Below are positions 13,526 through 55,779 of a DNA stretch of 64,000 bases, in pieces. Made by a program: the position numbers and the translations under genes. Under the pieces are notes generated by a model. It saw nothing but the letters and a program-made list of their open reading frames with translations. It had not been told where the DNA came from and made no database searches. The DNA lies in assembly GCA_034420555.1 (NCBI GenBank), contig DAOULF010000259.1, positions 13,444 through 77,443 of the forward strand. Reading direction: 5' to 3'. Source of the DNA: Dehalococcoidia bacterium (GTDB lineage Bacteria; Chloroflexota; Dehalococcoidia; Lucifugimonadales; UBA1123). Within the stretch, counting starts at the first letter, position 1, and each line of letters opens with the position of its first letter.

Positions 13526-14170
13526 TCAGGTCCTGCTCGCGGCCTGTGGCAAGAGAGCTTCCGAAACACCGATCATGCTGTCCCGCGTGACCAGCGTGGC
13601 CAGTTCCTCTTCCAACATCCCGTCCGTTCCCGCCGGTCTGCGAGGCAGGACGAGGTAACGCAGGTCCGCCGTGCTGTCCACGACCCTCACCTGCGTATCC
13701 TCATCGAGTTCCAGGCCGAATTCGCGCATGACCGAGCGAGGTCCAACAACCGCTCTCTGCCGGTAAGCGAAGCTCTTGTACCAGTCCGGCGGCGGCCCCA
13801 GGAGCGACGTCGGATAGCAGGAGCAGAGGGTACACACCACCAGGTGATGCAGGTCGTCGGTGTTCTCCACGACCGCAAGTTCCGCGTCGTGCGTGAGCGT
13901 GTAGCCGAGTTCGTAAACCGCCGCGCGAGCGTCGTCGAGCAGGCGCTGCTTGAACGCCGGGTCTCTCCACGCCTTCGCGACGACTCTTGCGCCGTCCGAG
14001 GGACTACGCGACCGGAACAATTCGGCACGCTCCCGGACCTCATCCTGCTCGATTATGCCCTTTTCGATGAGCAGTTCGTGAATTGCAAGCGCGCGCCTCG
14101 CAGGCAGGCTAAGCTTAGTATCGGGCTGCATTCCTTCGTGCTCGGACTCGTCGTGATGATTGTCGCTCAT
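13526..14170 (-). CDS. nthA: nitrile hydratase alpha subunit, Co-type metal site
   Basis: The metal-binding motif VVCTLCSCYP (C-T-L-C-S-C, with Thr/Tyr typical of Co-type) is followed by LLGPPPDWYKSFAYRQR. Confidence 0.88.
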   Translation of the reverse strand: MSDNHHDESEHEGMQPDTKLSLPARRALAIHELLIEKGIIEQDEVRERAELFRSRSPSDGARVVAKAWRDPAFKQRLLDDARAAVYELGYTLTHDAELAVVENTDDLHHLVVCTLCSCYPTSLLGPPPDWYKSFAYRQRAVVGPRSVMREFGLELDEDTQVRVVDSTADLRYLVLPRRPAGTDGMLEEELATLVTRDSMIGVSEALLPQAASRT

Positions 14171-14235
14171 TTTGAACTCTCAGTGCTTCAAGCCATCTCT
14201 TAAATGCCGGCTCCATACTTGGGAGCGCCTCTGTA

Positions 14236-14270
14236 ATTCCCTCTCCCTTGATGGGAGAGGGTTAGGGTGA
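14236..14270 (+). repeat. family A hairpin repeat (CCCTCTCCC-TTGAT-GGGAGAGGG + TTAGGGTG)
   Basis: It forms a perfect 9-bp stem. It lies in the 151-nt spacer between the nitrile hydratase beta-C and alpha genes. Confidence 0.7.
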
Positions 14271-15693: not shown

Positions 15694-16389
15694 CTAGTAC
15701 CTCTGGGCCAGCATTTCCTTCAGGCCCTCGACGGTAAACTCCGGCGAGTTGGCATATCCGATCATTTCCTGCTCGTTGTTCTCGACCCGCTTCACGGCGT
15801 CGGGAATCTCGGCGGCAATGTCGCGCGGCACCTTGATTACGCCGTGCTGGTCGCCCTGGATTATGTCCCCCGAATTGACCTCCAGGCCGCCGATTTTCAC
15901 CGGGACGCCCACGTCGGTTATGTGAACGTAGGCGTGGGACACGAGTACGCATGACGCGAAGGCGAAGAATCCCGCTTCCTGCATCTCGTCCAGGTCGCGA
16001 ACTCCACCGTTCGTAACCGTGCCGACCGCGCCCAGCGCTCGGTGCAGATTCGCCTGCACCTCTCCCCAGAACGAACCTATCGGGTTGGGATAATCAATAT
16101 CTTCCAGGACCAGCACCCTCGGCCCAGGAACCTTCATGATCTCGTCCACCCACTCGGTCCTGGAGACATTCATGTGGGCGGAAGGTGGGGCGTCCGCGGC
16201 AATCTTGGCTGTAACCGCGTACCCGATCATGTGACCCATGTTCGGGAAGATGCTCTTGATCTCCGGCCCCATGAAGCCCACGTTTCGGGGCTGAACCGAG
16301 AACGTCTCAATCGCGTTTGCTATCGAGCAAGACGGTATCTGGCGCAGCGTTTCAAGAAGGTTGGCGTCTATTGGCTTGATGTCTGACAC
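15694..16389 (-). CDS. RraA family protein (RraA / HMG-CHA aldolase-like)
   Basis: It has GAVGTVTNGGVRDLDEM and GDIIQGDQHGVIKVP. The GTG at 16389 is preceded by GGAGG. The longest ORF starts at 16437. Confidence 0.8.
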   Translation of the reverse strand: MSDIKPIDANLLETLRQIPSCSIANAIETFSVQPRNVGFMGPEIKSIFPNMGHMIGYAVTAKIAADAPPSAHMNVSRTEWVDEIMKVPGPRVLVLEDIDYPNPIGSFWGEVQANLHRALGAVGTVTNGGVRDLDEMQEAGFFAFASCVLVSHAYVHITDVGVPVKIGGLEVNSGDIIQGDQHGVIKVPRDIAAEIPDAVKRVENNEQEMIGYANSPEFTVEGLKEMLAQRY

Positions 16390-16446
16390 TTGTTGGTCCT
16401 CCTGGGACGGTAATGTTAGTTTTGGCGGTGAACCCACCGCAGGTAT

Positions 16447-16896
16447 TCAAGTCTCTATTATCTCAAAATTGCTGGTGATTCGCGCGCGGCCTCCAACGGT
16501 CGCTCCGATAGAGCAGTATTTCTCCTCAGACAGGTAAATGGCGCGCCTCACAAGGTGTTCTTTCAGACCGGAGCCGCGAATCGTGTAGTGAATCTCGATG
16601 TCCTCATAAGCCCAGGGCGGTTCGGGGTTCTGATGCCCCTTCACGCTGATTTCGATTCCATCCACCTTCTGGCGCATCCGCTCCAGGATGTTCACCACGT
16701 CTATCCCGCTGCATCCCGCCAGGGCCGTGAGAAGCATGTCGCCGGGCATGAAGCCCTCGAATTTCGCGCCCTCGCTCTGCGGCGCGTCCAGGGTAAGTGT
16801 GTGTCCGTGCGTGTCGCGCGACTCGAACCTGAAGCCTTCCTCCCAGCTAAGGTTCACTGTGTTCGACGGTCTTTCAGCGTCAGTCAATCCGTTCAC
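16447..16896 (-). CDS. OsmC family peroxiredoxin-like protein
   Basis: LLTALAGCSGIDVVNILERMRQ and a C-terminal EKYCSIG are typical of OsmC/Ohr. The start is a GTG. Confidence 0.85.
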   Translation of the reverse strand: MNGLTDAERPSNTVNLSWEEGFRFESRDTHGHTLTLDAPQSEGAKFEGFMPGDMLLTALAGCSGIDVVNILERMRQKVDGIEISVKGHQNPEPPWAYEDIEIHYTIRGSGLKEHLVRRAIYLSEEKYCSIGATVGGRARITSNFEIIET

Positions 16897-16897
16897 C

Positions 16898-17218
16898 TCA
16901 CTCGGGCATTCCTGCGTCTATCCACCTGGAAATCTCATCAATCTCGTCCGGCTTGAGGAACGGACCGCCCATAGGCATCCGCGGTATGGATCCGAATCCT
17001 TTTCTGAGGGATATGATCAGCGCGGTCTCCTCTGCGGGCACTCCCGACTCGATGAACTTGCTCCCCATGGATTCGTCGTTCGCCAGTTCCTGCGGCGTAG
17101 CCCATGAGTAGGAATGGATTCCGGGAAGACCCTTGCGGCCTTCCTTGCGCTCCCATCTTGCCATGATGCCGTCCAGGAGTTCTTGGACTCTCGGCCAGGT
17201 CGCGATTTCTGTACTCAT
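16898..17218 (-). CDS. hypothetical protein (106 aa)
   Basis: The ORF is coding-like and its stop lies 1 nt before the OsmC start. The C-terminus LKPDEIDEISRWIDAGMPE resembles the tail of planctomycete-type cytochrome c domains, but there is no CxxCH. Confidence 0.45.
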   Translation of the reverse strand: MSTEIATWPRVQELLDGIMARWERKEGRKGLPGIHSYSWATPQELANDESMGSKFIESGVPAEETALIISLRKGFGSIPRMPMGGPFLKPDEIDEISRWIDAGMPE

Positions 17219-18373: not shown

Positions 18374-18483
18374 TAGTGCGACAACTTAGTTGTGATGGAT
18401 ATTCAAGTTCCTATTTATTCCCTCTCCCCTTGGGAGAGGGTTAGGGTAGATAAACCATCATTTCAATAATGTTGAACTACTAG
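18370..18483. repeat. CTAG-bounded miniature repeat, family A-long, copy 2
   Basis: It aligns with 4515..4622: GCGACA(G/A)CTTAGTTGTGATGGATAT ... hairpin ... GTAGATAA.CC..CATTTCAA..ATGTTGAAC.ACTAG. It starts at the stop codon of the reductase gene. Confidence 0.75.
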
Positions 18484-24134: not shown

Positions 24135-24345
24135 TCAAATCCCCGACAGTGAGGACTGTGAGAAAGACCCGCTACCCCCTGAGGTTCCAATCCGCTATCT
24201 CGTATTCTCTCGTAAGATATAGCATCCGAGAAAGGCGATAGCCGTATGCCGAGAAACCCACTATACATACCCTTGAGTTTAGTGGAAGCATCAACTACCT
24301 GGTTGGTGTCAATTAAACAATCCATCGCAATTGGTAGAGCGATAG

Positions 24346-24383
24346 TTCCCTCTCCCTTGAGGGAGAGGGCTAGGGTGAGGGTG
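24346..24383 (+). repeat. family A hairpin repeat
   Basis: The sequence is TTCCCTCTCCC-TTGA-GGGAGAGGG-CTAGGGTGAGGGTG. It overlaps the probable GTG start of the DUF3179 gene. Confidence 0.7.
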
Positions 24384-26003
24384 CCAATCACTCTTGTGTT
24401 GCTTCCAGGTTTAGTCGTCGGATTGACGGCCGCCACTCTTGGCTGTTTTGGAGGACCCTCACTGCCTCCGACGCCAGAGCCTACCCCCGCGCGGGTCTCG
24501 GCGAACGCGGACATGAGCGCAAAGACGACAGCCGCAGCGCCGTCCCCGACCCCAATTCCGACTTCCACACCTGTCCCGGAAGCCACCCAAGCTCCGGATG
24601 CTACTCCTACGGCAGCGACGCCTGATCCTACGCCTACTTCTACCGCTGTTCCGTATGAATCGGAAGCGGCGATGTACGATATGTTCCCAGGATTTACGAT
24701 GTCAATGTCGCAAACGCTCGAAGCGCTGGAACGGATCAAGCAATACGACGACTCTTCGATGATTCCGGTTCTGATAGAGGTTATGCGCTTCATGCCCACC
24801 CAGTCGTCCCGCGACAGCGTTGCGGACGCGCTGAGGGCGCTTACGGGTCAGCCCTTCGAGGGCAACGACTGGGATAAATGGATGGACTGGATGGGAGCGA
24901 ACCTGGACGAGATCGAACCGCCCGAAGGATACCCCGACTGGAAGGCCAGGCTGTATTCTGCCATAGACGAGAGGTTCGCGTACTTCCTGAGACCCGCGCG
25001 AGACTTTTCCAGGATCAGGCTGGAGGAGGTAGTCTGGGGCGGAGTCCGGCCCGACGGCATTCCCGACCTGCGAAGGCCCTCCTTCCTGGAAGCCTCGGAA
25101 GCCGAGTACATGGACCCGGACGACAGGGTATTCGGACTTGAGATAAACGGCGACATCAGGGCCTACCCGCTTAGGGTGGTCAACGCGCACGAGATGGTGA
25201 ATGACTCCGTGGGAGGCGAACCCATCTCGCTAATGTGGTGAACGCTCTGCGGAGCCGGAATCGTGTATTCCGCGAAGATAGACGGACAACCCACCACATT
25301 CGGCACGTCGGGGTTTCTGTATCGCTCCAACAAGCTGATGTACGACCGGAAGACCAACTCGCTTTGGAGTTCCCTGGTTGGGGAGCCTGTCATTGGAGAT
25401 CTGGCTGAGCGAGACGAAATCATCAAGCTCGACTTCTTCCCCGTCGCCCTTACAACCTGGGGGGAGTGGGTCGAGGAGAACCCGGACACCAAGGTGCTGT
25501 CCCTGGATAACGAGTTCTATCCTCCCTACTTCTATGAACCTGAGACCAGTGAAAGGTCCATCTACTACGACTATCGTGTAAGGGCCGACACCATGTTCCC
25601 CGTGTGGAATCGCGACCACACCCTGGAAGCCAAGGACGAGGTGCTCGGTCTGTCAATCGGAGACACCCACAGGGCCTACCCTGTTATGAAACTGCGCGAA
25701 CTGAGGGTTGTCAACGACACGCTGGGCGACAGGAACGTCGTCATCCTGTCATCCGAAATGTCCTCCGACGCAAGGGTATTCGAGCGTGGCGATGAGACCT
25801 TCGCTATCAAGAGTGGCGAAGACATCGAAGGGATTCCGACTTCACTTGTTGATTCCAACGGCGAGACATGGACGGTTGGTAAGACGGGACTCACGAAATC
25901 CGGCGACCAGAGCGCAACTCTGTCCAGGCTGCCCTCATTCGTAGCCTTCTGGTTCGGCTGGTATGCCTTCCACCCCGACACTACCCTGTTCGAGCCCGAA
26001 TAG
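24375..26003 (+). CDS. DUF3179 family lipoprotein with in-frame TGA (25239-25241), candidate selenocysteine codon
   Basis: The two track ORFs (24246..25241 and 25263..26003) share one frame and are separated only by the TGA. Read-through gives a continuous DUF3179 core. It has a lipoprotein signal (MRVPITLVLLPGLVVGLTAATLGC) and a Pro/Thr-rich linker. Confidence 0.6.
25242..25277 (+). promoter_or_regulatory. candidate bacterial SECIS-like hairpin downstream of TGA
   Basis: GGAAU (25257-25261) pairs with AUUCC (25267-25271), plus C25256:G25272, around the apical loop CGUGU. An alternative helix pairs 25248-25253 with 25269-25274. Confidence 0.4.
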
Positions 26004-26018: not shown

Positions 26019-26124
26019 CTAGTACCAGAGAACTGCATGAATATGTCATACTCCGGTAGCTAACCGTCATTCCCGCTTTCGCGGGAATCCATGGGCGGGG
26101 CCAGGCTTATAACTGGGAAAACTG
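26019..26124. repeat. miniature repeat family C, copy 1 (contains ATTCCC-N8-GGGAAT hairpin)
   Basis: It aligns with 55675..55779: CTAGTACCAGA..CATGAATATGTCATACTCC.GTAGCTAACCGTCATTCCCGC....GCGGGAATCCA.GG..GGGG.CAGGCTTA.AAC.GG.AAAACT. Confidence 0.75.
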
Positions 26125-55678: not shown

Positions 55679-55779
55679 TACCAGAACCACATGAATATGT
55701 CATACTCCAGTAGCTAACCGTCATTCCCGCGAAAGCGGGAATCCAGGGGTGGGGTCAGGCTTACAACCGGCAAAACTAG
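55675..55779. repeat. miniature repeat family C, copy 2, CTAG-bounded
   Basis: It aligns with 26019..26124. Its left CTAG contains the glyQS TAG stop. The hairpin loop is GAAA here and TTTC in copy 1. Confidence 0.75.

Follow-up and report, generated by a model that had tools for sequence, protein, structure and literature searches.

The 64,000-nucleotide (nt) stretch analyzed here, hereafter the window, comes from a Dehalococcoidia bacterium of the phylum Chloroflexota (assembly GCA_034420555.1, contig DAOULF010000259.1, positions 13,444 to 77,443 of the forward strand). On its plus strand lie two open reading frames (ORFs), 24246..25241 and 25263..26003, which share one frame and are separated solely by the TGA at 25239-25241, as an earlier note on this DNA had described and as direct reading of the window confirms. 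The codons at 25233-25250 are ATG TGG TGA ACG CTC TGC (M W * T L C), within the wider context TCG CTA ATG TGG TGA ACG CTC TGC GGA at 25227-25253. With cysteine (Cys) placed at the TGA, a Pfam scan of the 542-residue product gave a single match to PF11376 (DUF3179) that spans the TGA, covering residues 227-536 and profile positions 2-292 of 292 (E value of 1.4e-80 and 271.3 bits versus a cutoff of 27). The stop thus sits inside one DUF3179 domain, and the uninterrupted core that the note expected upon read-through is indeed found. From these and the comparative data below, 24246..26003 is very probably one gene coding for a DUF3179 protein, predicted to be exported and lipid-anchored, in which the UGA is decoded as selenocysteine (Sec, U). 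The predicted read-through peptide across the recoded codon is ...SLMW-U-TLCGAGIVYSAK. The features of the gene are as follows.

24246..26003, plus strand: whole gene, from ATG through the TGA (predicted to be recoded) to the TAG stop at 26001-26003; one frame with one internal TGA.
24375..24446, plus strand: alternative GTG start and putative lipoprotein-type signal peptide, MRVPITLVLLPGLVVGLTAATLG-C, read from the translation; lipobox Cys codon at 24444-24446.
24447..24644, plus strand: Pro/Thr/Ala-rich low-complexity linker, read from the translation; a similar linker occurs in homologues.
24645..25052, plus strand: N-terminal helical domain of about 135 residues, without a Pfam family; aligned in homologues of 440 to 550 residues.
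25053..25982, plus strand: DUF3179 domain (PF11376; Pfam match, 1.4e-80), beta-rich and internally duplicated, with U-x-x-C in the first repeat only.
25239..25241, plus strand: TGA, predicted to be read as Sec; TGA in 84 of 88 orthologous sequences, Cys in this column in 138 of 145 representatives.
25239..25250, plus strand: putative U-T-L-C motif (TGA ACG CTC TGC), from direct reading and alignments.
25256..25272, plus strand: hairpin resembling a bacterial Sec insertion sequence (bSECIS), with 5' arm CGGAAU (25256-25261), loop CGUGU (25262-25266), and 3' arm AUUCCG (25267-25272).
25242..25271, plus strand: stretch in which synonymous variation is suppressed, covering codons +1 to +10 past the TGA, from codon entropy.

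Conservation of the TGA codon and its cysteine column

The codon was compared across 88 orthologous sequences from about 75 species, one from the window, 8 from metagenome loci, and 79 from genomes that each represent a species. The latter came from a genome scan with one genome per species, in which all 79 loci belonged to Dehalococcoidia or Chloroflexota metagenome-assembled genomes (MAGs) and showed 48 to 94% identity to the query. The orthologue on the closed chromosome OZ242284.1 is 94% identical. At exactly this codon, 84 sequences have TGA and the remaining 4 have TGC, with no case of TAA or TAG. Counting only the genome-scan loci, 75 of the 79 have an in-frame stop at the codon, and 4 have a Cys in the context AY-C-TLCGAG. 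In no orthologue did the stop lie at another position, which is the opposite of the pattern expected of a pseudogene.

A protein search with the read-through domain retrieved as its 18 best matches (76 to 99% identity) proteins of about 246 residues that correspond to the part after the TGA only, and full-length proteins of about 540 residues were seen only at identities of 57% or less. An exact-match query for the downstream ORF of the window turned up no database record. Eight of the contigs behind these short matches were retrieved, and each carries two adjacent “DUF3179” ORFs in the same synteny as the window; the codon is again TGA in all eight, where the context reads W-TGA-ACG-CTN-TGC. 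The 83 distinct Sec-form genes have at least 75 open codons upstream of the TGA and 238 to 263 codons downstream to a common stop, and their mean pairwise amino acid identity is 70% upstream and 55% downstream. An identical TGA codon between open and conserved flanks argues for a translated codon and against both a pseudogene and an assembly error. Two of the related loci showed irregularities of their own. In L007 (5479-5928), the part of the orthologue before the TGA is shortened by an earlier stop, and in L008 (7351-8425), the neighboring DAHP synthase gene is in two pieces; each could be an assembly error or real decay.

When the read-through product was aligned with 22 full-length homologues, the TGA fell opposite the first Cys of C-T-L-C in all 22. 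HMMER, run exhaustively against 1.84 billion representative proteins, yielded 9,078 family members at an E value of ≤0.001, and motif statistics were taken from the best 150 of these, of which 145 span the column. Motif position 1 is Cys in 138 of the 145 (95%), and position 4 is occupied by Cys in 128, by Ser in 8, and by Thr in 6. The earlier note had placed the TGA on the first Cys of a C-P-L-C motif; the position holds, and the wording of the motif does not, the commonest form being CTLC (111 of 145). Two representatives stop just before the column and four start shortly after it, and these truncated proteins are further split Sec forms.

A covarying hairpin downstream of the TGA

In close orthologues, the 40 nt past the TGA are near-invariant despite diverged synonymous sites elsewhere. 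Normalized codon entropy is 0.28 for the conserved-residue codons +1 to +11 versus 0.76 elsewhere in the gene, and the six-column window with the lowest synonymous variation of the whole gene (+3 to +10) lies over the hairpin. We aligned 68 distinct sequences over window positions 25233-25286 (alignment A1), on which RNAalifold, unprompted, predicted a 6-bp hairpin pairing columns 24-29 with 35-40, that is, 25256-25272. It begins 14 nt after the TGA, and the distance from the UGA to the loop is 20 nt.

Compensatory double changes were found in three of the pairs: 7 sequences have UA in place of CG, 9 have CG in place of GC, and 9 have GC in place of AU. G-U intermediates occur in 11 more, of which 8 affect the third pair, 2 the AU pair beside the loop-closing pair, and 1 the first pair. 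Standard pairing occurs in 89.5% of the pair cells, versus 26 to 62% after sliding of the partner columns. None of 500 shuffles reached the covariation score of 0.220, compared to 0.105 in shuffles. In the clade formed by L066-L076 and L082, the compensation even alters the protein: GGA...UCC (Gly...Ser) becomes GCG...CGC (Ala...Arg), and GIVYS becomes AIGYR. The covarying hairpin is present in the TGA forms; in the four TGC genes, unrelated sequence stands at the site and no hairpin was found.

The published bSECIS model allows a loop of 3 to 9 nt, a stem of 4 to 16 bp, a G in loop position 1 or 2, a spacing of 16 to 37 nt between UGA and loop, and a minimum free energy (MFE) of ≤−7.5 kcal/mol (PMC13188914). 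The hairpin lies within all these limits (loop of 5 nt, stem of 6 bp, G at position 2, spacing of 20 nt), and the MFE of the UGA plus 35 downstream nt (38 nt) is −11.3 kcal/mol in the window and −10.4 and −7.8 kcal/mol in the other two sequence types. As in fdhF of Escherichia coli and bacterial SECIS elements generally, it lies within the coding sequence directly 3' of the UGA, and its 5-nt apical loop has the G at position 2 followed by U (G in one clade). It differs from them in its very short stem of 6 bp (7 in one clade) and in that no conserved lower stem was found; binding by SelB is at this stage predicted. Folding of the window sequence by itself also gave a second small hairpin, just on the 5' side of the SECIS stem; it was rejected, as its columns vary without compensation.

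Proposed selenocysteine decoding and its alternatives

By analogy with known bacterial Sec biology, the hairpin at 25256-25272, 14 nt downstream of the codon, would act as a bacterial SECIS and recruit SelB with Sec-tRNA(Sec), and this complex would outcompete release factor 2 at the UGA. Decoding of UGA 25239-25241 would then give U-T-L-C where most family members carry C-x-x-C (or C-x-x-S/T). Of the 40 complete long stop-to-stop ORFs of the window, 14 terminate in TGA (15 counting the first half of the gene); the codon is therefore an ordinary stop here, and there is no genome-wide reassignment.

We also looked for the Sec machinery by tblastn with E. coli SelA, SelB, and SelD (from NC_000913) against the window and all loci (705 kb). 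The sole clear match was a selA in L080 (3-785, chromosome OZ241740.1), whose product is 45.6% identical to SelA of E. coli (E value of 4e-52); otherwise only weak matches to pyridoxal phosphate enzymes appeared. This selA lies upstream of the DUF3179 Sec gene of the same genome, its end about 1.5 kb away, with one oppositely oriented transporter gene between them, and the closest database relatives of its product belong to PF03841, are named L-seryl-tRNA(Sec) selenium transferase, and come from Dehalococcoidia or Chloroflexi. In the neighborhood of another Dehalococcoidia selA (L090), neither selB nor a DUF3179 gene was found. ARAGORN detected no tRNA genes in the window and no tRNA-Sec in 88 of the fetched loci, and a search of the whole window with Rfam at gathering thresholds gave no match. 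The ten largest bacterial selenoproteomes include those of two Dehalococcoidia MAGs, one with 49 selenoprotein genes and the other with 46 (BSepDB paper, PMC13326102). At 4308-4405 of L090, inside an annotated DUF2851 gene near selA, ARAGORN reported a tRNA-Ser(GGA) of an unusual length (98 nt).

One alternative is that the gene is a pseudogene or the TGA a sequencing error, that is, a recent nonsense mutation or a wrong base call that replaced TGC or TGT. One base change turns TGC into TGA, and local errors or disruption do occur in related long-read assemblies (the short upstream half in L007 and the split DAHP synthase gene in L008). However, 84 sequences, assembled independently and drawn from about 75 species whose synonymous sites have diverged heavily, carry TGA at the identical codon. 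No other stop interrupts the frame, and purifying selection acts on both halves, whereas the stops of a pseudogene would scatter. We consider this explanation already refuted by the comparative data, with practically no probability left to it. A very small probability goes to the production of two polypeptides, with termination at the TGA, a restart at GTG 25263, and the halves forming a split DUF3179 protein. Gene callers do give two ORFs in every public record examined, and in the window the GTG lies 7 codons past the TGA. Nevertheless, this internal start is not usable everywhere, since the downstream ORFs called in L007 and L008 begin 19 to 24 codons later, and the 7 codons between TGA and GTG (TLCGAGI), which include the second Cys of the motif, are conserved as protein. 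The second half would furthermore have no signal peptide while the first half is exported, the Cys-form relatives are single chains, and a covarying hairpin confined to the TGA forms would be left without a reason.

Read-through without Sec has in our estimation a small probability. The hairpin would then stimulate decoding of the UGA as Trp, Cys, or Arg by a near-cognate or suppressor tRNA, or the codon would undergo some other lineage-specific recoding. Downstream RNA structures can stimulate read-through in other systems, and the Sec machinery was not seen in the 64-kb window. Yet the codon coincides with the near-invariant Cys of CxxC/S/T, a classic Sec/Cys pair, and the hairpin fits the bSECIS model, loop G included. 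Also against this explanation are the selA beside the orthologue in the related genome OZ241740.1, the richness of the class Dehalococcoidia in selenoproteins, and the use of TGA as a normal stop in the neighboring genes.

Some observations also weigh against Sec decoding or the role that we propose for the protein. Experimental selenium incorporation was not found for any DUF3179 protein in the accessible literature, and selA, selB, selD, and tRNA-Sec were not found within the 64-kb window. The stem is short (6 bp, about −5 kcal/mol by itself), and the bulged U of the E. coli fdhF type is not shown for it. The copy in the window has a 132-nt insertion in its signal peptide region, so export could be impaired, and the redox function discussed below is deduced from the motif pattern, with a fold that is not thioredoxin-like and without a solved match. 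The Sec interpretation of the earlier note is nonetheless the one that we support, with the Cys column, the conservation of the TGA, and the covarying hairpin all in its favor.

Whether a Sec form of DUF3179 had been catalogued, which the note left open, can be answered from the literature: one review includes DUF3179 among the selenoprotein families and gives its motif as UxxC/T (Zhang et al. 2022, PMC9312934, Table), and a later review classes DUF3179 (UxxC/T) as “predicted with high confidence” and not experimentally verified (Zhang et al. 2026, PMC13188914, Table 1). Both credit the Sec family to Zhang and Gladyshev 2007 (PMC1976440), where new families from Olavius symbionts appear under provisional names, none of them recognizable as DUF3179. 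The example accessions of the catalogue, MBW1804167.1 and MDJ0986319.1, may or may not belong to the present subfamily. Because the family and its U-x-x-C site are already catalogued, the finding is correct but not new as a kind. The present genes share with the catalogued family the PF11376 domain, the Sec at the first position of U-x-x-C, one Sec residue in each protein, and a stem-loop that follows the UGA directly. They differ from it in origin, since the family was first reported from symbionts of Olavius, a gutless worm, and the present genes come from Dehalococcoidia/Chloroflexota MAGs, and in the added putative lipoprotein signal, Pro/Thr linker, and helical N-terminal domain without a Pfam family. 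NCBIfam gave no match and has no model for DUF3179, which helps to explain the split public annotation.

Architecture, genomic context, and significance

Full-length Cys homologues consist of a lipoprotein-type signal (...VACGS...), a Pro/Thr-rich linker, a helical domain of about 120 to 135 residues, and DUF3179, and the translation of the window gene shows the same layout. By eye, a putative lipobox reads ...GLTAATLG-C in the window, where the copy has its insertion, and ...(V/A)ACGS at the same place in homologues. The N-terminal helical domain had no Pfam match even at an E value of ≤10. We modeled the Cys homologue P0112 with AlphaFold2 (predicted local distance difference test [pLDDT], 90.2; predicted template modeling score [pTM], 0.86), obtaining an all-helical domain predicted with high confidence and a beta-rich DUF3179 part of two similar halves, with the motif in the first half only. 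The internal duplication of the DUF3179 domain (25053-25982) can also be seen in the window sequence, where RVFGLEINGDIRAYPLRVVNAHEMVNDSVGGEPISLMW[U] resembles EVLGLSIGDTHRAYPVMKLRELRVVNDTLGDRNVVILSS, the U/CxxC site being confined to the first copy.

A Foldseek search of the PDB with the P0112 model gave no significant match (best E value, 0.03; template modeling [TM] score, ≤0.16), and a PDB sequence search gave none either. A partial likeness to Rieske ferredoxin (probability, 0.69; TM score, 0.48 over 120 columns) was set aside as too weak to use. There was no thioredoxin-type match in Pfam and none among the 50 Foldseek matches listed. Although the UxxC motif resembles those of thioredoxin-fold oxidoreductases, the protein is not a member of that group, since its fold is not thioredoxin-like. 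It shares with the UxxC/CxxC oxidoreductase selenoproteins (thioredoxin [Trx]-, glutaredoxin [Grx]-, and DsbA-like) an invariant first Cys/Sec and a second Cys/Ser/Thr, and it differs from them in the modeled combination of a helical and a duplicated beta-rich domain, which would not be thioredoxin-like.

CxxC/S/T-type motifs have been read as redox sites (PMC13188914). A near-invariant first Cys/Sec followed by Cys, Ser, or Thr is what one would typically expect where a single redox residue acts as the nucleophile and its resolving partner is optional. This pattern favors an extracytoplasmic redox role, and a thiol/selenol redox function is what the alignments suggest as most likely, with metal or metalloid binding as a second option. 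The gene neighborhoods are not conserved between clades and gave no operon clue to function.

The 132-nt in-frame insertion lies in the region 24277-24415 and consists of a 125-nt element (24284-24408) plus a 7-nt duplication; it was not found in the orthologues L078, L004, and L044. The element has terminal inverted repeats, GGAAGCAtCAAC ... GTGTTGCTTCC, is flanked by the 7-nt direct repeat GTTTAGT, and folds into a long hairpin (−49.7 kcal/mol), and the insertion adds 44 in-frame codons to the signal peptide coding region. It looks like an insertion of the miniature inverted-repeat transposable element (MITE)/repetitive extragenic palindromic (REP) type that kept the frame open and possibly supplied a new GTG start at 24375. 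The earlier note took this GTG as the start of the gene; it falls inside the insertion and has no counterpart in the orthologues, and the common start is the ATG at 24246, which aligns with the ATG of L078, L004, and L044.

The core of the inserted element is a palindrome, CCCTCTCCC-(3-5 nt)-GGGAGAGGG, with copies at 14239-14261, 18420-18440, and 24348-24369 of the window. These three copies, versus none expected, and further ones in loci L007, L017, L022, L028, L029, and L083 suggest that these Dehalococcoidia harbor a family of dispersed repeats. Another palindromic repeat, ATTCCCGC-NNNN-GCGGGAAT, occurs at 26069-26088 and 55723-55742 (two copies versus none expected), one of them 66 nt past the stop codon of the gene. 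We rejected it as a classic intrinsic terminator, as no T-run follows. Elsewhere in the window, on the minus strand, are genes for a nitrile hydratase alpha subunit (13529-14179; PF02979, 1e-79), an OsmC-like protein (16450-16917), and an RraA-like protein (15697-16446). The OsmC-like gene ends in TGA and is followed by the RraA-like gene in the same frame. OsmC-like proteins are a known selenoprotein family; the two appear to be ordinary adjacent genes and not a second case of read-through.

In neighbor-joining (NJ) trees, the 83 Sec leaves group with 14 Cys leaves in one subfamily that is separate from the other 103 Cys proteins. Parsimony over 100 bootstrap NJ trees gave a minimum of 2 to 4 switches between Sec and Cys, never 1, and the ancestral state was ambiguous. 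A wider reading, which we offer tentatively and regard as doubtful in its entirety, would make DUF3179 a structurally new class of extracytoplasmic, lipid-anchored selenol/thiol enzymes, lacking both a thioredoxin fold and a solved relative. The Sec form of the family would have been kept across a marine and host-associated radiation of Dehalococcoidia (about 75 species) with repeated Sec/Cys switching, and its SECIS stem would be so embedded in the coding sequence that amino acid changes are coupled (G...S to A...R). If the Cys clades nested among the Sec forms are true Sec-to-Cys reversions, they would add another case to a class called rare in bacteria (PMC13188914).

The Sec reading itself is supported about as far as sequence analysis allows, for a system whose kind is not new. 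Its immediate value is for annotation. The gene is split into two “DUF3179” ORFs in every public record examined and no NCBIfam model flags the Sec codon, so that dozens of Dehalococcoidia genomes carry a mis-called selenoprotein. The hairpin also offers a well-supported natural example of a minimal SECIS with clear covariation. Finally, the family provides a large and clean set of Sec/Cys pairs and a fold without a solved relative, making it a reasonable target for structural and biochemical work.

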